Shown in pieces: positions 16,167 to 54,419 of a DNA stretch of 64,000 nt. Position 1 is the first letter of the stretch. Each line of letters begins with the position of its first letter. Source of the DNA: Bdellovibrio sp. (lineage in GTDB: Bacteria > Bdellovibrionota > Bdellovibrionia > Bdellovibrionales > Bdellovibrionaceae); the NCBI RefSeq assembly GCF_036384735.1, contig NZ_DASVLT010000038.1:148-64147 (forward strand), given 5' to 3'. Made by a program: the position numbers and the translations under genes. The notes below the pieces were generated by a model that saw only the letters and a list, made by a program, of their open reading frames with translations, did not search any database and had not been told where the DNA came from.

Positions 16167-16355
16167 TTATTTAATAGCTTGATTATTCGAAGTAGCTGCT
16201 TGAGTTCCTTGGGCTTGGATCGAGGAAGGTGCCGTCGTATTTGCAAAGAGGCTGTTGCCTTGGCTTGTCATCATGTGAGTGCATTTCGAACCAGCAAAAG
16301 AAGTAGAAGCGATTGTTAGGATTGCTGCTGTGATGATTGCTTTAGTGATTGTCAT
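16167..16355 (-). CDS. small secreted Hit-like peptide A (62 aa)
   Basis: MTITKAIITAAILTIASTSFA|GSKCTH...SLFANT...NQAIK; gaggt RBS; the track's upstream ATG (16415) lies inside the promoter motif. Confidence 0.75.
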   Translation of the reverse strand: MTITKAIITAAILTIASTSFAGSKCTHMMTSQGNSLFANTTAPSSIQAQGTQAATSNNQAIK

Positions 16356-16398
16356 TGTAACCTCTTTGTCTAAAAGTTCGTTGTACACAAGAGGGTAT

Positions 16399-16414
16399 TG
16401 CATCGGTTGTGCCA
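16399..16414 (-). promoter_or_regulatory. sigma54 (RpoN) -24/-12 promoter
   Basis: TGGCACAACCGATGCA with GG and GC at canonical spacing. Confidence 0.7.
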
Positions 16415-16541
16415 TGATTTTCGAATCATAGTGAGATTGCGTTGACGAAGAATCAACGACTTAGAAGAAGCGCTTCTCAGAATGAGAGAGCACATGCCGT
16501 CACGCGCCCTTTTCGTTCCGCGCGTGCCTACGCTTTTGACA

Positions 16542-16580
16542 AAAGGGGAAGGAGAGCAGCCAGGGGGGAAGCTACTCTCC
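16542..16580 (-). terminator. hairpin terminator after peptide B
   Basis: Minus strand ggagagtagc-N10-gctgctctcc followed by ttcccctttt. Confidence 0.55.
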
Positions 16581-16603
16581 TAGGGGGCAATTTCTAAATT
16601 GTT

Positions 16604-16789
16604 CTAGTTGATAGCGCCGTTCGCAGAGCTAGAACTAGATGTTGCAGGTGCAGATTGTTTTGCACGTTGCTTTGGATTTGTAGAAGCGAAAAGAGAACCG
16701 TTATCCTTATGTGCGCATTTTGGTTCCGCGATTGACGCAGAAGCAGAAGCTAGGACGAAAGCAGCCATTAAAATTTTCGCGATCTTCAT
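16604..16789 (-). CDS. small secreted Hit-like peptide B (61 aa)
   Basis: MKIAKILMAAFVLASASASIA|EPKCAH...SLFAST...NGAIN; aggag RBS. Confidence 0.8.
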   Translation of the reverse strand: MKIAKILMAAFVLASASASIAEPKCAHKDNGSLFASTNPKQRAKQSAPATSSSSSANGAIN

Positions 16790-16832
16790 GGGGGACTCCT
16801 TTGATAGATATAAATCTTCATAAGGAGTCTAT

Positions 16833-16848
16833 TGCAGCGGTTGTGCCA
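16833..16848 (-). promoter_or_regulatory. sigma54 (RpoN) -24/-12 promoter
   Basis: TGGCACAACCGCTGCA; the surrounding 22 bp match 16396-16417 at 21 of 22 positions. Confidence 0.7.
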
Positions 16849-16856
16849 TGAAGTAT

Positions 16857-16877
16857 GTCTCAGACTGAGACGTCTCA
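16857..16877. promoter_or_regulatory. GTCTCA-N3-TGAGAC palindrome with an overlapping TGAGACGTCTCA
   Basis: gtctcagactgagacgtctca, directly upstream of a sigma54-type promoter. Confidence 0.5.
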
Positions 16878-16915
16878 CTTGTCTTATCAATGACTTAGGG
16901 GGCAGGGGCTCTAAA

Positions 16916-16946
16916 TAAAAAAGGCCCGGATTGTTCCGAGCCCTTT
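16916..16946 (-). terminator. intrinsic terminator of the tad-YD-hit transcript
   Basis: Minus strand gggctcgga-acaa-tccgggcct followed by a U-tract. Confidence 0.8.
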
Positions 16947-16978
16947 TGTGTCCTTCGTATGCAAACTGACTATACAGC

Positions 16979-17257
16979 TTAGTTGCCGATAGCGCCGTTT
17001 CCTTTAGAAGAGTCAGGTGACCCTGAAGAACCAGATCTTGGCTGAGCCGTTGTGGCGTCTTGCATGCGCATGTGTTTCAAGCGAGCCAAACATTCCTTAC
17101 ACTCACCTACTGATGCCACCGCAGCGCCTTGTGAAACCATTGCTTCATTTGGATCGTCGCCTGGGTTCACAGTGCGTTTAGAATCGTCTTGTGCGAATGC
17201 AGAGAAAGCTGAACTTAAAGAAACCAAGATTGTCGTTAGAACTAAAATCTTCTTCAT
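16979..17257 (-). CDS. hit: Hit (Bd0108-like) host-interaction protein
   Basis: Signal peptide; VNPGDDPNEA and ECKECLA motifs as recalled for Bd0108; lies directly downstream of the YD-repeat gene. Confidence 0.85.
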   Translation of the reverse strand: MKKILVLTTILVSLSSAFSAFAQDDSKRTVNPGDDPNEAMVSQGAAVASVGECKECLARLKHMRMQDATTAQPRSGSSGSPDSSKGNGAIGN

Positions 17258-17270
17258 AAATCCACCTTCC

Positions 17271-18923
17271 TTATAGATAAAGCTCAGCTGTTGCTGGAGC
17301 GATAATATCTAGCAAGTTGTTGAAAGTGCTGGCCACTTGCATTGCCACTGAAGGACCCTCTTTGCTATCCACTTTGTTGATCTCTCCATTCGTTTTGTAA
17401 GAGACCTGAATAGTACCAAGACCCGGACGAGTTACGATTGATGGTTTACCATAACGCTCTTCGTATTCGATCTTAACCACTTTTTTCGCCTGATCTGTGA
17501 TCGTAGCGATGCGGCCGCGATTATCATACGTCATAGAGATCTTTTGACCATCGCTATTCTGAGCGAATGCAAGATTTCCTTTAGCGTCGTATTTAAATTG
17601 AGTTTGTTTCGTAGCCACTTTTGCACCCTTCGCATTGAAGAATACAGTAGTTACTTCACTTACCTTCTTAACCTTTGGATCGTAATCATAAGACATACGC
17701 ATTGCTGCTGTTGCCTTTGTTTTTACAAGACCATCTGGATAATATTCATAAGAGATACGATCTGTATTGCGGCGAATTGATGTCGGTTTGCCGAATACTT
17801 CATGGTAAGTGATATCAGTCACGTTACCATTTACTGTCGTAGCTACACGTTGCAAATAGTATTGACCGTCAGGGCGTTGTGCATGCCAGAATTCATACTT
17901 ATTATCAGCAACTGTTTCTTTGCCGCACACTTTTTTAACCGTCGACCAGTAGTGATTTTTTGGATCGTTTGTTGCGAACTCATATTTGTATGATTCCACA
18001 CACTTATCGCGATCTGCGAAACCGATAACCCAGTCGTTTTTCTTATCGTATTTCAAAGCCACGAAAGTCTTATCTGGCCAAGTTGCTTTGGTAAGGTTGT
18101 GAAGATCATCGTACTCGTAAGTATAAGTCTTCAACCAAGCATTTTTCACAGAAGCCAAGTCGTCAAGATTTGCGAACTTATAGTCAGCCATCAAACCATT
18201 TGGACCTGTGATCGATTTAACTTTTTTATTTTGGTAGTACTTGAATGTCAATCGACGACCATTGTTGTCTTCGATTTGCGCGATCACGTCTTTGTCATAC
18301 GTGAATTTCAAGTAGTTACCGTTCTTGTCATAGATATGTGTCAGCTTGCCTTGAGGGCTGAAGCGTTGAGCGCTGCCATCTGGAAGGTTGCGAGTGTAGT
18401 AAGTTTTATTGAAAACAAAATGCTCAACCTCGCGGCCGTTCGCATAGAACTTGGTTCCTTCGCGAACTGGAGGAGTTAATCCGTACTTCGCTGCTAGTTC
18501 AGAACGAGTATTATCGTCTTCAACCAATTGAGTTTTTAAAGTATTGAGGTAGGCCTCAGTTACGCCGACTTTCCTTTCAGCTCTCATCTTAGTGATGATC
18601 GAGTTGATTGTCTTATCAACATCTGCACGACTTACTTCGCGTGGAGAGAACGTGACTTCCAAACCGCCACCGCACTCTTTCACTTTCAAGTTACCTTCAG
18701 CAGTTACTTCCATTGTCGTTTCGAAGTCAGAGCACCAACCGAAACCGAACATGCCGTTGAAGAGTGAACGAGAGTTGTAAGTTCTTACGATTTTAAGATC
18801 GTATCCGCTTCCTGGAACATCCATATCAATCCAGGTATTGGAGTAATTGGCGTTTTTCATGTCGACAAGCGCGTGGGCTTGCGCAGAAAAAAGAACGGCA
18901 ATTGCCAAGAGAGTTTTCTTCAT
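17271..18923 (-). CDS. secreted YD-repeat/RHS-like protein (Bd0109-like) with a DUF6531-like N-terminus
   Basis: RTYNSR...GMFGFGWCS, then many YD/YE-x-x-G repeats; no PxxxxDPxG core end and no toxin tail. Confidence 0.9.
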   Translation of the reverse strand: MKKTLLAIAVLFSAQAHALVDMKNANYSNTWIDMDVPGSGYDLKIVRTYNSRSLFNGMFGFGWCSDFETTMEVTAEGNLKVKECGGGLEVTFSPREVSRADVDKTINSIITKMRAERKVGVTEAYLNTLKTQLVEDDNTRSELAAKYGLTPPVREGTKFYANGREVEHFVFNKTYYTRNLPDGSAQRFSPQGKLTHIYDKNGNYLKFTYDKDVIAQIEDNNGRRLTFKYYQNKKVKSITGPNGLMADYKFANLDDLASVKNAWLKTYTYEYDDLHNLTKATWPDKTFVALKYDKKNDWVIGFADRDKCVESYKYEFATNDPKNHYWSTVKKVCGKETVADNKYEFWHAQRPDGQYYLQRVATTVNGNVTDITYHEVFGKPTSIRRNTDRISYEYYPDGLVKTKATAAMRMSYDYDPKVKKVSEVTTVFFNAKGAKVATKQTQFKYDAKGNLAFAQNSDGQKISMTYDNRGRIATITDQAKKVVKIEYEERYGKPSIVTRPGLGTIQVSYKTNGEINKVDSKEGPSVAMQVASTFNNLLDIIAPATAELYL

Positions 18924-18954: not shown

Positions 18955-19830
18955 CTACACTTTAATGGTAACAAGCTTTTTAATGACTACGCCACCGATA
19001 ACTTGCAGACATAGCATCACAAACAGCAACACTAGACCTAAGGTTGTGGTAAACATAGGCTTGATGAAATTCGGATCGATCATAAGGAATACGGCCATCA
19101 AAACAAACGGGATCATAGTCACGATAATCCCTTGCATAAGGCCTTGCGCAGTCAGAGCTTGAATTTTTTTCTCGACCTTTTGTCTTTCGCGAATGACTAT
19201 GACGATGGTCTGGAAAGTCTCTGCCAAGTTACCGCCGGTCTCTTTTAAGATATTGATCGCCGTCACGAACATCTGAACATCGGGACGGGGAATGCGATTT
19301 CCTAAATCGTTCAAGGCGCTCTCGAAACTGTCACCAACTTGCATTTGATAAAGAACTTGCGCGAATTCCTGACTGATAGGATTTCCCATGATCTCTACCA
19401 CACGCTTCATCGATTCCTGTGGATTTGATCCGGCTTTAATACCGTTGGCCATGATTGTTAGGCCATCGACCATTTGATCTGTGAATGTCGAGCAACGACG
19501 TTCATAGATTGTCCGCACAAGAAGCAAAGGCAATTGCCATCCCGCGATCGTGAGTGAGCAACCAAAGAAGATTCCCATCAAAACACTCGGCCAGCATAAT
19601 AGGAATGCTAAAGCGCCGACACCAAAGCTCATCAACAAAATCATAATGGTGATGCGCTTTTCATCGACTTCAGAACCCATCAAACGAAGAATCTTAATCA
19701 CTTCTTCTCGTTGACCCAGGCTGCGCTTGTGAAGCCACGCAACGCCTTTCTCTGCCCACATCAAAATAATGATGAAGACGCAAATACCAAAAAGAGGAAT
19801 CATGATCCATTCGTTAAATAGAAAATGCAT
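18955..19830 (-). CDS. tadB: Tad pilus assembly platform protein TadB
   Basis: T2SSF-type motif ETGGNLAETFQTI...RERQK; several TM helices. Confidence 0.9.
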   Translation of the reverse strand: MHFLFNEWIMIPLFGICVFIIILMWAEKGVAWLHKRSLGQREEVIKILRLMGSEVDEKRITIMILLMSFGVGALAFLLCWPSVLMGIFFGCSLTIAGWQLPLLLVRTIYERRCSTFTDQMVDGLTIMANGIKAGSNPQESMKRVVEIMGNPISQEFAQVLYQMQVGDSFESALNDLGNRIPRPDVQMFVTAINILKETGGNLAETFQTIVIVIRERQKVEKKIQALTAQGLMQGIIVTMIPFVLMAVFLMIDPNFIKPMFTTTLGLVLLFVMLCLQVIGGVVIKKLVTIKV

Positions 19831-44089: not shown

Positions 44090-44772
44090 TAGCGAACCCC
44101 TTGTCCTGTTTGGCCCGAACTAGAACCCGATGAGCCAGATCCAAAGAAAGATCCGCCACCGTTAAAGCCTTCGCCTAGAGCTTCAAGTTTCTTTTCTGTT
44201 TCAGTGTATTCTTCCATGACTTCTTTTGAAGTTTCAATATCCTCTTTATTCCAAGAGTACTTTTTCGGTTCTGTATCGAGAGGACCAAATTGATAACGAG
44301 CTCCGTAATATATCTTGTCGAGATGAGGTTTTGGATTGCCATCTACGTTCATTTTCGCGGTCCACTCATCCACTGTGACTGGCTTATCAAATAGTGATGG
44401 ATCGAAGACCATTAACTTTGGTTTACCGCCATCGCTAACATAAACAACCGGGGCGACATGATATCCCCATTCGATGGTGGGCGTATATTTGCTTTTTGTT
44501 TTTACACGAAGATATCCGGTGGCCCAAACTTTGCCCATTTCGATCTTTTCTTCTTCAGCAATTTTAGACATCGCAGTCGCGCGAGCATAGCAACCGTCCG
44601 GAGGATAATTAAAAGGAATTTCGGTATGAGATTTAAATTCAGTGAATAAGCGATCTGCCTGTGCCGTACTCAAAACCGATACATCTACATCCTTGCCGGG
44701 AGCAAAAGCGTCGGGAATGGTCATCGTTGCAGCGAGTGCGAACAACGCTAAAAATAAAATTCTCGTGATCAT
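44089..44772 (-). CDS. secreted protein-glutamine glutaminase-like enzyme (papain-like Cys-His-Asp)
   Basis: FNYPPDGCYARA, WGYHVAP, FDPSLF; signal peptide; start is either 44772 or 44784. Confidence 0.88.
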   Translation of the reverse strand: MITRILFLALFALAATMTIPDAFAPGKDVDVSVLSTAQADRLFTEFKSHTEIPFNYPPDGCYARATAMSKIAEEEKIEMGKVWATGYLRVKTKSKYTPTIEWGYHVAPVVYVSDGGKPKLMVFDPSLFDKPVTVDEWTAKMNVDGNPKPHLDKIYYGARYQFGPLDTEPKKYSWNKEDIETSKEVMEEYTETEKKLEALGEGFNGGGSFFGSGSSGSSSGQTGQGVR

Positions 44773-44780
44773 ATAAGAAT

Positions 44781-44807
44781 TCATCGGTGTCTCAGGAATA
44801 GACTGAA
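44781..44807 (-). promoter_or_regulatory. degenerate sigma28-like promoter
   Basis: TTCA-N15-ACCGATGA immediately above ATG 44772. Confidence 0.35.
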
Positions 44808-51469: not shown

Positions 51470-54319
51470 CTAGGGCTTCCCTGGCATCGTCATTCCTCTC
51501 ATTGCTGCAAGCTTTGCCTGGATCTCGTTATTGAATTTATTTTGCTGGATGTTCGCCTGTTTCAGGTTGCGAATCTTATCCCAGCTAACTGCATTAGCCA
51601 TGCTTCCATACATCATCACTTCTGAAGCCAATGATTGAAGATTCTCAAGACAAGCTACTGCGATTTCTTGCTGTTGAGCGTTTAGTTTTACAAGAGCCCC
51701 ATCCTTTGCATCTCCGACACCTAAAGATGTCGCCACATTTTTCAAAGACACTTGAATTTTTTGAAGCTGCTCATCAAGTTGATAATTTTCCAATGGAGAT
51801 TGAATCGCCTCATGACCATCGATTTGCACGATCTTGATTTGTTGAATAAGTCCATTCAACACCGCAAATTCTTGCTCTACCGCTTTCAATGGATCTTGAG
51901 TAGGCGCCTTCGTCAAAATTGTCGAAAGATCCAATTTATAAGAGGCAGTTGGCTGTAGAAGTTCGCTCAATAATGATAGATATGTGCGCTCTTCCTGGAA
52001 GGCCGCATTCATAGCGCCGTTAGAAATTGGTCCGCGGTTGAATGTCGCTTTGTCAGTGCGAACCTGTCCCCAGAACTCCTTATCAAAGAAATTCTTAGTG
52101 CTATTGCCAAGTTTATCCCACATTTTCTCGAAGACATTTGCGTAAGCCTGGCGGTCTTGGCGATAAATTGTGCGAACCATGTTAGCTACGATCGAATCAT
52201 AGTCTTTGCCGAATTCTTCAAACGCCTTTTGCATTTGTGACTCGGTTGTTTTTGTCCACCATTGTGGGAATCCGGATTCTTTAGCATCACCCACGATATT
52301 TGGGCGTGCGGTTTGGACGATATAATCTAAAAAGCCGGTATATTTTTTTCTGTTATGGTCAAAGACATCCCAAGAATAGATATTCTTAGCGCGTGAACGT
52401 GGCATGCCGACCGTGTCGCACAAATTACTGAAATCATCTTTAGGATTTCCCAACATTGGCGGCAGGAACACAGAAGGGAAGCCGCGAGAAGTCTTAACAA
52501 CTTTCGCGCCTGCCTCCGCGTTTGGTCCACACACCATTTGCATCATCAAATAATCAGTCATTGTTGGAGTAAAAAACACGCCAACCTGTCTGTAGTAAGC
52601 AGTACCTTTGAAATTTTCAGAAGTTGTCGGAGCTGATTGATAAGTCGCAAGGAAGCCGCGGCCTTTTTCTAGCATTGGATCTGGTTTGCCCAGTTTCGTT
52701 TTTGTATCTTGCAAGGCACGGATGTACCACTGTGTAGAGGCTACATTTTGCACAGATTGTTCGATCGTTGTATTCAACAAGTCTAATCCCTGACCCATTA
52801 CCATATGGTCATCCGAAGCCAACATATCGCGAATTTTTTTGAATTGAATTTTCTCGTTCGGATTCATGTACTTAAAATTGCCGTCTTTGATGATTTGATC
52901 CATCGAAGCAACCACATCGGCAACAGTATCAGCCTGCCAGTTTTCAACCATCTTAGGACTTTGGAAATAAAGATCTTCGCGACCTGCCTCCATGCCTTTT
53001 GCTGGAACTCCATTCAGTGGATAATAGGCAAGAAGTGGTTTAAACGGAGATTGATCATAACGAACATTGCGCACTTCATTTACGAAAGCGTTGTAGAAAG
53101 CATAACTAGAGTTGTACATGCTTGTAAGTTGGAAAAGATTTTCCGACCAGGCTTGATGTGCCTCATAGACATCCGAAAGGTTCATCATGCGCCATTCCGT
53201 CATTTTCGTTCTGAAATTTTTGATGTCTTTCTTTAATTCAACGTTGGAAGCAGTCCATTGAGATGCCTTTAATGCATTGACGTCTTTAGTAAGATCATCA
53301 CCCATTGTATTGAATGTCGCTCCGTCGAAGAAATTCTTCCACGCATAGGTTACTTTGCGATTCAGCCATGCATCGATCGCTACAAATACGCCAATTTGTA
53401 AACCTTTAACAACAAGAAGGCGGATGCCCTTAAGTTCCATTGTTCCAGGCATCAACCACAAGGCGATATCAACGCCAGTTAATTTGAGCACAACACGAGT
53501 CACAACAGATTGAGCCATCCCTGCAAGTGCAGAAGATGCAAGCATAGAAACCATGCCTGGAGCGAACTCCCAGATTTTTTTGTGAATCACAAGATATTCG
53601 TAAGCTTTAGAGCAAGGATCAGCATCGATACCAGCCGCTTGATCTTGAGCAGAAACTTTTCCACCCATCATCACCTTTCCGCAGGCCATGACGTTCGGAT
53701 CAGAAGCCACTTGGGAAAGGTAGCTTTGTACGAAAGCGCCTACCGTCATTCCAAGATATGGAATCATGTGATGGAATTTTGGGTTGGTCATGTACATCGC
53801 AAGAACATTTGAAGTCAGACCCTGAGAGGCCATAAACGCAAAGAAGCCAAAGACACCAATTGGTGAAAGTTGATGGTCGATGTGCTGCTTCATCGCAGTT
53901 GGATTTTGTGAGTAGTTTGTAATAAGTTGGCCAGCCACCACGGCACCCATCGCGACAAAGAAAATCAAAGACTCTGTCGGAAGACTTTTCATCGAATGAG
54001 AAAATGCAGATTGACCCGCACCTTTCACGCGCACCATTTCATCTAAAAGCATTCTATTCAAAGATTTAGGAGAAAATTTGCGAAGATTTTCCTCATCACC
54101 GAATGGGATTTCCATAGCCAGTTGATTCGATGACTTATCGTAAACAGCGGCCTTCTTGTTCGTTTCATCAACAACCAAACGATAGCCGAGTGGCTCCAAG
54201 TAATCGCGGTACTGGGTCATCTTAGCTTTTTCAGCGTCTGTCATGTTTCCAGCAAACGCAGGACCGATCGCGGTGTTCAACAAGGCGATGGACACTAGGA
54301 TTTTCTTGAACCAATTCAT
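51470..54319 (-). CDS. large secreted hypothetical protein (949 aa) with a hydrophobic helical block
   Basis: Signal peptide (AFA|G); gaggag RBS; several Gly/Ala-rich hydrophobic helices at about aa 117-320. Confidence 0.85.
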   Translation of the reverse strand: MNWFKKILVSIALLNTAIGPAFAGNMTDAEKAKMTQYRDYLEPLGYRLVVDETNKKAAVYDKSSNQLAMEIPFGDEENLRKFSPKSLNRMLLDEMVRVKGAGQSAFSHSMKSLPTESLIFFVAMGAVVAGQLITNYSQNPTAMKQHIDHQLSPIGVFGFFAFMASQGLTSNVLAMYMTNPKFHHMIPYLGMTVGAFVQSYLSQVASDPNVMACGKVMMGGKVSAQDQAAGIDADPCSKAYEYLVIHKKIWEFAPGMVSMLASSALAGMAQSVVTRVVLKLTGVDIALWLMPGTMELKGIRLLVVKGLQIGVFVAIDAWLNRKVTYAWKNFFDGATFNTMGDDLTKDVNALKASQWTASNVELKKDIKNFRTKMTEWRMMNLSDVYEAHQAWSENLFQLTSMYNSSYAFYNAFVNEVRNVRYDQSPFKPLLAYYPLNGVPAKGMEAGREDLYFQSPKMVENWQADTVADVVASMDQIIKDGNFKYMNPNEKIQFKKIRDMLASDDHMVMGQGLDLLNTTIEQSVQNVASTQWYIRALQDTKTKLGKPDPMLEKGRGFLATYQSAPTTSENFKGTAYYRQVGVFFTPTMTDYLMMQMVCGPNAEAGAKVVKTSRGFPSVFLPPMLGNPKDDFSNLCDTVGMPRSRAKNIYSWDVFDHNRKKYTGFLDYIVQTARPNIVGDAKESGFPQWWTKTTESQMQKAFEEFGKDYDSIVANMVRTIYRQDRQAYANVFEKMWDKLGNSTKNFFDKEFWGQVRTDKATFNRGPISNGAMNAAFQEERTYLSLLSELLQPTASYKLDLSTILTKAPTQDPLKAVEQEFAVLNGLIQQIKIVQIDGHEAIQSPLENYQLDEQLQKIQVSLKNVATSLGVGDAKDGALVKLNAQQQEIAVACLENLQSLASEVMMYGSMANAVSWDKIRNLKQANIQQNKFNNEIQAKLAAMRGMTMPGKP

Positions 54320-54359: not shown

Positions 54360-54375
54360 AGCAAGCTTAGTGCCC
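54360..54375 (-). promoter_or_regulatory. sigma54-like -24/-12 promoter of the 949-aa gene
   Basis: GGGCACTAAGCTTGCT with canonical GG/GC spacing, about 40 nt above the ATG. Confidence 0.6.
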
Positions 54376-54402: not shown

Positions 54403-54419
54403 TGTCTCTAAATGAGACA
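54403..54419. promoter_or_regulatory. GTCTC-N5-GAGAC palindrome
   Basis: tgtctctaaatgagaca, flanked by ggca/tgcc. Confidence 0.5.

Follow-up and report, generated by a model that had tools for sequence, protein, structure and literature searches.

The way in which hit mutations release Bdellovibrio from dependence on prey has been in question since 1992, and the part of the encoded protein that is most frequently mutated, its C-terminal region, has no known partner (Hit, or Bd0108, of B. bacteriovorus HD100 was reportedly described by Cotter and Thomashow in that year). We examined a 64,000-nucleotide stretch of DNA (hereafter the window; contig C38 of a Bdellovibrio genome of 4.1 Mb in 73 contigs, labelled G000) in which a hit orthologue is followed by genes for two short secreted peptides, B and A. 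The peptides appear to form a Bdellovibrio-specific family, probably related in truncated form to the C-terminal half of Hit, and we favour, with moderate confidence, the reading that they are sigma-54-dependent, Sec-exported, disordered 'mini-Hits' that may serve as free output modules (mimics or competitors of Hit) in the growth switch. The three genes at issue are, by position in the window:

16979..17257, minus strand: Hit/Bd0108 orthologue, 92 amino acids (aa), starting 13 nt past the RHS gene
16604..16789, minus strand: peptide B, 61 aa, ribosome-binding site AAAGGAG, signal peptide and single cysteine
16167..16355, minus strand: peptide A, 62 aa (corrected start), ribosome-binding site AAAGAGG, signal peptide and single cysteine

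The peptide family and its likeness to Hit

All three open reading frames (ORFs) lie on the minus strand, and a re-reading of the window confirmed the sequences that the initial annotation had quoted for them, together with the listed positions of hit and B. A listed 82-aa version of peptide A, begun at the ATG at 16415, was rejected as too long, since that ATG sits inside the -24 promoter element (cATGGCAC) and precedes the likely transcription start; the 62-aa peptide begun at 16355 has AAAGAGG-N5-ATG, and the equivalent methionine is the start in all relatives. The Hit protein of the window carries a signal peptide, NPGDDPNEA, CKEC, the core RMQDATTAQP and the C-terminal GNGAIGN. Both peptides have the K-rich, hydrophobic and AxA segments of a Sec signal peptide, followed by a polar mature part with a single cysteine: the predicted cut of B falls between ASIA and EPKC (about 40 mature residues, EPKCAHKDNGSLFASTNP...SANGAIN) and that of A between TSFA and GSKC (about 41 mature residues, GSKCTHMMTSQGNSLFANTTAP...SNNQAIK). 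AlphaFold2, run on the family alignment, returned only the signal-peptide helix (predicted local distance difference test 55, predicted template-modelling score 0.18), which is consistent with a disordered peptide tail. With B as query, its own 4.1 Mb genome yielded A at E = 0.0045 and no other credible match, and the likeness of the two peptides exceeds what chance would give.

A genus survey of 25 Bdellovibrio genomes (the window's own and 24 others) recovered the family in every one: exactly two full-length copies, one A-type and one B-type, in 22 of the 25, one copy and a piece in two fragmentary assemblies, and the B-type only in a 99% complete genome (G006). The B-type gene follows hit in every genome examined, other genera included, and the A-type gene, whose signal peptide is very conserved (MTITKIITAAI...), stands in tandem with it in 10 genomes and beside an EamA-family transporter gene elsewhere in 12 (including HD100, at 407.4 kb). 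In an alignment of 39 family members the cysteine, placed 2-6 residues past the signal-peptide cut, is the only invariant residue, within a consensus that reads SP-x-(P/T)-K-C-x-H-...-(L/R)-F-x-N-T-(N/A)-P-... and closes with G-x-R/K/N. Across 26 orthologue pairs the differences at codon positions 1, 2 and 3 numbered 451, 282 and 762, and the ratio of nonsynonymous to synonymous substitution (dN/dS) ranged from 0.07 to 0.69 (mostly 0.2-0.3; against their orthologues, 0.18-0.22 for peptide B and 0.25-0.32 for peptide A), with synonymous sites near saturation (synonymous differences, pS, of 0.3-0.8). Given this third-position bias and a dN/dS well below 1, the sequence record identifies A and B as real translated-type genes under purifying selection. 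When 1.84 billion representative proteins were searched with the peptide profile, 54 matches were returned, all of 54-81 aa, with zero proteins of Hit length among them; furthermore, a word-indexed search found Bdellovibrio entries only, named 'hypothetical protein' and without a Pfam domain, which bears out the earlier expectation that orthologues were already deposited as hypotheticals.

Several assignments to known classes of small exported proteins were rejected. A bacterial lipobox reads [LVI][ASTVI][GAS]C, its -1 residue being small; most family members have lysine in that position (PKC, SKC, TKC) and few have alanine or serine before the cysteine, and the name 'Lipoprotein' on one UniRef entry is unsupported for the peptide family. 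In Flp/Tad prepilins the leader ends in glycine, after which come xxxxEY and a mature N-terminus of hydrophobic character; in the peptides it is the signal peptide that forms the hydrophobic stretch, and the mature part is polar and without the EY motif. The label of one UniRef member, DUF680 (PF05079), was matched by none of the 39 members at E <= 1, and Pfam searches with single peptides and with all 39 members gave noise only.

The three genes had been taken at the outset for a related tandem set, and profile comparison upholds this. A profile of the 39 peptides aligned to one built from 17 Hit orthologues (hhalign) with a probability of 85% and E = 6e-6; with the mature parts only, the score of 21.8 stood above all of 200 shuffles of the Hit columns (6.8 +/- 1.5, maximum 11.9; a distance of about 10 standard deviations), and the reversed Hit control scored 5.7. 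The alignment is collinear and covers the C-terminal half of Hit only: K-C-x-H of the peptides, which have a single cysteine and no CxxC, falls on the second cysteine of the Hit CxxC, L-F-x-N-T-N-P on R-L-x-D-D-T-T-x-R-P and the terminal G-x-R on G-T-R, and the NPG(E/D)DPNEA region of Hit is missing from 39 of 39 peptides. Moreover, the core co-varies by lineage, with (G/R)RHxxT in Hit, A and B of HD100 and Tiberius, and DKTA / xNTA in Hit, A and B of the group formed by G003, G016 and G021; in G013 the Hit protein has RLQDNTNPVR and the B-type peptide MFSKTNPVR, and in G018 the B-type peptide has DKTA and Hit LTKNTNP. From the profiles and this co-variation we consider a common ancestry of the peptides and the C-terminal half of Hit probable.

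The classic in-frame 42-bp deletion in hit (Δ42) removes residues 73-86 (RRHDDTVSREIKGS), and these are exactly the core shared by Hit and the peptides. Hit of HD100 (G011) matches the residue numbers of a published nuclear magnetic resonance (NMR) study (N32, D36, C56, C59, 73-86 = RRHDDTVSREIKGS, Q101), in which titration with Bd0109 placed the contacts on Hit residues 24-66, affected 74-85 moderately and left 89-101 unchanged (PMC4267844). As they align with the half that holds Δ42, outside the half mapped by NMR, the peptides match the genetically critical portion of Hit, for which no partner is known. Like Hit, they have a Sec signal peptide, are predicted to be disordered and periplasmic, and lie at the same locus on the same strand, with a cysteine that corresponds to the second of the CxxC, a core of the form (R/L)(L/F)x(D/N)xT(N)P, a Ser/Thr/Lys-rich tail and a G-x-(R/K/N/Q) end. 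Unlike Hit, they have about 40 mature residues, one cysteine and no Bd0109-binding half, come in two paralogous types, and have predicted sigma-54 promoters and terminators of their own, apart from the bd0109 transcript. In B. bacteriovorus W (G019, locus L052) the Hit ORF is cut to 49 aa after NPGEDPNEA, a truncation already noted in Prehna 2014 (PMC4267844), and the A-type gene, the B-type gene and the sigma-54 boxes are intact.

The initial annotation had also pointed to a shared C-terminal motif, and its conservation is apparent across the family: the pattern G[TVAI][RKQN]$ stands at the C-terminus of 21 of the 39 peptides and of 8 of the 17 Hit proteins, compared with 0.45% of the genome's long ORFs, which amounts to an enrichment of the G-x-(R/K/N/Q) end of about 100-fold over the genome background. 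The narrower pattern NGAI.?N$ ends 3 of the 14,062 six-frame ORFs of the genome, namely Hit, B and the following protein:

G000:C35:238416-239948, minus strand: 511-aa secreted coiled-coil protein ending ANGAIAN, with palindrome and putative sigma-54 promoter

The 3' end of its gene has GCGAACGGCGCTAT in common with B, and the last codons nearly match those of B. In the corresponding coiled-coil family of about 480 aa (loci L063-L085), a sigma-54 box is found in 20 of 23 genomes (in most as TGGTAC-N6-TGCA, 28-29 nt before the ATG), and the C-terminal end is kept in its relaxed form in 12 and in its strict form in 9 of the 23. Gene conversion could account for the shared end, as could one reader that recognises the free C-termini of all these proteins. 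Two further secreted proteins with Ser/Gly-rich tails were observed, one of 328 aa ending GNGNGAIK (G000:C43:119651, plus strand) and one of 231 aa ending GQTGQGVR (window, about 44090-44785, minus strand), and the two may be further carriers of this end.

The HD100 transcript described as a small RNA

In HD100 the B-type ORF occupies 96483-96683 on the minus strand, with the palindrome at 96767-96781, the sigma-54 box at 96743-96758 and a terminator hairpin, the same as that of B in the window, that ends near 96405; peptide B of the window is the orthologue of the HD100 ORF and shares with it its place after hit and this hairpin. For this region Capeness 2013 (PMC3818213) reported a small non-coding RNA gene at 96455-96716, with an RNA sequencing (RNA-seq) signal at 96436-96822, a discrete transcript of about 260-390 nt by RNA-seq and reverse-transcription polymerase chain reaction, and up-regulation of this small RNA (sRNA) in all bd0108 mutants relative both to HD100 and to HID2 (a host-independent, HI, strain with wild-type bd0108). 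The HD100 B-type ORF lies wholly within the published transcript, its sigma-54 box also falls inside the RNA-seq signal, and the ORF conserved at this place (57-69 aa) has a ribosome-binding site, a signal peptide and the mark of purifying selection. Because the ORF lies inside the transcript and bears a coding signature, the published 'sRNA' is most likely the mRNA of the B-type peptide.

That the locus is instead a regulatory small RNA, in which the ORF is incidental or the RNA is dual-function, strikes us as scarcely credible. The discrete transcript and the strong, conserved terminator hairpin would suit such an RNA, but the ORF, its ribosome-binding site, signal peptide and cysteine are kept in spite of a pS of 0.3-0.8, third codon positions change most, dN/dS lies well under 1, and the ORF length is kept in the 54 database representatives; the terminator hairpin alone is structured, and an Rfam scan of 14-20 kb of the window at E <= 1 gave zero matches. 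A strictly non-coding sRNA was rejected on these grounds.

Literature searches on Bd0107, on Bdellovibrio sigma-54/RpoN and on small RNAs and small proteins gave no account of the peptides or their promoters, and the sRNA goes unmentioned in a 2024 mBio paper and a 2026 J Bacteriol review. Already known, then, are the proteins (as database hypotheticals) and the transcript (published as non-coding); new with respect to the literature searched are the coding reinterpretation, the architecture of sigma-54, IHF and palindrome elements, the A/B pair rule and the relation to the Δ42 region.

Putative sigma-54 promoters and a candidate regulon

The regions upstream of B and A hold the following putative elements (the two palindromes and the degenerate repeat being unstranded):

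16833..16848, minus strand: putative sigma-54 promoter of B, TGGCACAACCGCTGCA, -24 GG / -12 GC, kept in orthologues
16857..16871: perfect palindrome GTCTCAGTCTGAGAC, 8 nt upstream of the B -24 box, position kept in most B-type promoters
16885..16898, minus strand: candidate IHF-like site of the B promoter, CTAAGTCATTGATA, whose complement TATCAATGACTTA fits WATCAANNNNTTR
16399..16414, minus strand: putative sigma-54 promoter of A, TGGCACAACCGATGCA, kept in orthologues
16423..16436: proximal degenerate repeat TCTCACTATGATTC, 8 nt upstream of the A -24 box
16451..16464, minus strand: IHF-like site of the A promoter, CTAAGTCGTTGATT, between the distal and proximal repeats, kept in A-type promoters
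16474..16489: distal palindrome-like site CTCTCATTCTGAGAA, 59 nt upstream of the A -24 box

The motif TGGCAC-N6-TGCA occurs twice in the window (0.11 expected) and six times in the 4.1 Mb genome, and both window sites lie 43 nt upstream of an ATG, that of A and that of B. In the other genomes, all 39 family members have a GG-N10-GC box 35-64 nt before the ATG (34 of the 39 boxes fit TGGCAY-N6-(T/C)GC and five A-type promoters carry AGC at -12), and in three other genera of the order, where an RHS gene is likewise followed by two short secreted ORFs, such a box stands before the second of the small secreted ORFs that come after hit. The host genome encodes rpoN (PF04552, 1e-64) and about 15 sigma-54 activators (strong PF00158 matches), and a sigma-70 promoter scan of the region returned zero sites. 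The boxes mark a putative sigma-54 promoter for each of A and B. In aligned promoters the inverted repeat GTCTCA-N3-TGAGAC ends 8 nt before TGGCA, a block reading CTAAGT-N-TTGAT is kept whose complement fits the IHF consensus (WATCAANNNNTTR), and A-type promoters have an extra, distal copy of the repeat upstream of the IHF-like block. The architecture resembles that of classical sigma-54 promoters (nifH, glnAp2, pspA) in its exactly spaced -24 GG/-12 GC, its IHF-like WATCAANNNNTTR site and its upstream inverted repeat, and the host genome resembles classical sigma-54 systems in having rpoN and many AAA+ activators; unlike in the classical promoters, a mere 8 nt separate the proximal palindrome (centred at about -42) from the -24 box, which is unusually close for an activator site. 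The palindrome before B is a candidate site for a regulator or enhancer-binding protein.

Further elements at the locus are:

18955-19830, minus strand: TadB/C-like T2SSF protein
17271..18923, minus strand: Bd0109-like RHS/YD-repeat periplasmic protein, 550 aa (Pfam RHS_repeat 6.9e-12, DUF6531 1.2e-8)
16912..16947, minus strand: intrinsic terminator of the bd0109-hit unit, a 13-bp G+C-rich stem followed by a U run
16541..16581, minus strand: terminator of the B transcript, a 12-bp stem GGAGAGUAGCUU/GGCUGCUCUCC followed by UUCCCCUUUU

On the minus strand the gene order is CpaF-like ATPase, T2SSF protein, RHS/YD gene (the first gene of the bd0109-hit unit, its product 85% identical to the HD100 protein at G011:97197-98846), hit, peptide B and peptide A. 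Strong hairpins with U runs follow both hit and B: the folding of the bd0109-hit terminator has z = -3.4, with 0 shuffles folding equally well, and that of the B terminator z = -4.7, with the same hairpin after the HD100 orthologue. Since separate terminators thus follow hit and B, the sequence divides the locus into three transcription units, bd0109-hit, B and A. At locus L058 (G001:C1:96855-98505) the Bd0109 homologue is spread over two overlapping frames (residues 1-236 and 232-550), likely by a frameshift, and hit and the B-type gene are intact. Converging on peptide A from the plus strand, the segment 15524-16163 encodes a stand-alone CheY-like receiver (130 aa) and then an 86-aa ORF with a hydrophobic N-terminus, and it probably corresponds to that side of the HD100 'intergenic' region on which bd0103 lies. 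In Bacteriovorax marinus SJ, as here, an RHS gene is followed by two short secreted proteins (BMS_0183 and BMS_0184), reported to lack significant similarity to Bd0108 (Prehna 2014) and compared here by description.

The strict palindrome GTCTCA-N3-TGAGAC has 9 sites in the genome against about 0.25 expected (~35-fold), mostly intergenic (among them C7:64526, C11:6500, C48:140764, C51:15498 and C65:1075), and is probably the site of a global regulator. A scan for palindromes (with <= 2 mismatches) that have a sigma-54 box in the next 100 nt found 9 pairs, against 1 with the box reversed and 3 with the box pointing back at the palindrome; the gaps between palindrome and box are either 8 nt or clustered at 28-31 nt, about two helical turns apart, and all 9 pairs precede genes for signal-peptide proteins. 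Pairs elsewhere in the genome and in the window are:

C7:370293: before a 441-aa signal-peptide protein
C21:34702: before a 474-aa signal-peptide protein
C26:39403: before a 220-aa signal-peptide protein
C30:26368: before a 108-aa signal-peptide protein
C35:240038: before the 511-aa signal-peptide protein
C43:63543: before a 732-aa signal-peptide protein
Window 54404-54418, minus strand: palindrome GTCTCATTTAGAGAC, then a 28-nt gap and the box GGGCACTAAGCTTGCT at 54360-54375, before ORF 51470-54319

The product of ORF 51470-54319 is a 949-aa secreted protein with zero Pfam matches, and its promoter belongs to the same class as those of the peptides. We consider these palindrome and sigma-54 promoters to outline a candidate sigma-54 regulon of secreted proteins. 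Directly upstream of one of them lies a gene (G000:C7:369024-370079, plus strand) for a 351-aa sigma-54 activator, with 33 residues before its AAA+ domain, an HTH_8 domain and no receiver or sensor domain, and this PspF-type activator is a candidate regulator of the peptide promoter class.

A proposed role in the growth switch

In the reading that we favour, A and B, once exported, would present Hit's short linear motif and C-terminal end to a periplasmic partner, and would act as free 'output modules' (Hit mimics or competitors) in the pathway that leads from pilus status to the growth switch. An enhancer-binding protein at GTCTCA-N3-TGAGAC would set peptide synthesis, which would rise on loss of Hit function and so form a feedback or compensation loop. 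The partner would not primarily be Bd0109, because the peptides lack the Bd0109-binding N-terminal half of Hit.

The initial annotation had proposed the opposite, with A and B as alternative ligands of the RHS/YD protein, and this was not supported in that form: the peptides align only from the second CxxC cysteine to the C-terminus and are without the binding half at residues 24-66, for which reason a shared partner other than Bd0109 fits better. We regard as unlikely that A and B compete with Hit as ligands of the Bd0109-like RHS protein, possibly as cargo in the RHS shell, even if throughout the order the peptide genes come immediately after bd0109-hit, isothermal titration calorimetry gave about 3 Bd0108 per Bd0109 (so that several disordered ligands per shell are conceivable), residues 74-85 of Hit (the shared core) lost some NMR signal on addition of Bd0109 (PMC4267844) and Bd0109 is without the usual C-terminal cargo domain. 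Besides lacking NPGxDPNEA and most of the NMR-identified binding part, the peptides share with Hit a tail and end (residues 89-101) that Bd0109 left unaffected (PMC4267844), the A-type gene stands at another locus in 12 genomes, and the predicted sigma-54 control is independent of, and not co-transcriptional with, bd0109. There is likewise only a small chance, in our estimation, that the peptides simply belong to a larger sigma-54 secretome regulon, with envelope or prey-directed roles, none in the growth switch, and an ancestral or compositional likeness to Hit. The presence of the same promoter architecture before at least six other signal-peptide proteins (108-949 aa), one of which (the 511-aa protein) ends in ...ANGAIAN and has orthologues with the box in 20 of 23 genomes and the relaxed end in 12 of 23, agrees with this view; the constant adjacency of the B-type gene to hit (other genera included), the co-variation of the core motif with Hit within lineages and the response of the HD100 transcript to bd0108 genotype speak against it.

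Disulfide pairing of the single-cysteine peptides, as the initial annotation had also suggested, is plausible in itself. A more elaborate version, in which an A-B heterodimer (or homodimers) would be released as a signal between predator cells or would undergo exchange with the Hit CxxC, we hold to be very unlikely. Its appeal lies in the cysteine, the sole invariant residue in 39 sequences, 2-6 residues past the cut and aligned with the second cysteine of Hit, in the occurrence of one A and one B in 22 of 25 genomes, and in the oxidised CxxC of Hit, whose recombinant form makes disulfide ladders; yet G006, at 99% completeness, has the B-type only, and the Cys-x-His pair could bind metal instead.

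Several observations weigh against our preferred reading, the peptides as free output modules derived from the Hit C-terminal half. Pairwise BLASTP between Hit and peptide gave nothing for HD100 and E = 0.043 for G013, and it is on account of these non-significant values that we call the ancestry, drawn from profiles and co-variation, probable and unproven; as the regions are of low complexity, short motifs may have converged or been spread by gene conversion. The A-type gene is distant from hit in half of the genomes, so the two need not be physically linked. Some copies of the palindrome stand without a sigma-54 box (of the 9 strict sites, only that before B has such a box), and the palindrome may therefore bind a general regulator. 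Of 3309 long ORFs, 37 match the loose tag G[TVAI].?[RKQN]$ and none of the 37 has a sigma-54 box, which confines the idea of a C-terminal tag to Hit, the peptides and the ~480-aa family. Furthermore, the published up-regulation compared growing HI cells with attack-phase cells and may partly reflect growth state, although the HID2 pattern argues against that explanation.

Going beyond the preferred reading, we offer tentatively, and with considerable doubt, a receptor circuit in which Hit, A, B and perhaps the ~480-aa protein would be co-evolving disordered periplasmic ligands, each with one short linear motif and a free C-terminal tag that a single receptor (e.g. a PDZ-type or sensor domain) would read, with feedback on the peptide genes through the PspF-type activator and sigma-54. 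If true, this peptide-based feedback circuit would govern whether the predator begins to grow, and would explain why Δ42, by removing exactly the shared motif, unlocks prey-independent growth.

Taken together, the only other transcript reported from the locus most likely serves as mRNA, encoding a secreted relative of the Hit C-terminal region, which corrects an annotation from sRNA to small ORF, and every Bdellovibrio examined has at least one such peptide, nearly all having two, under predicted sigma-54 control. Moreover, the promoters of these genes point to a candidate sigma-54 regulon of secreted proteins in a predator that is under development as a living antibiotic.

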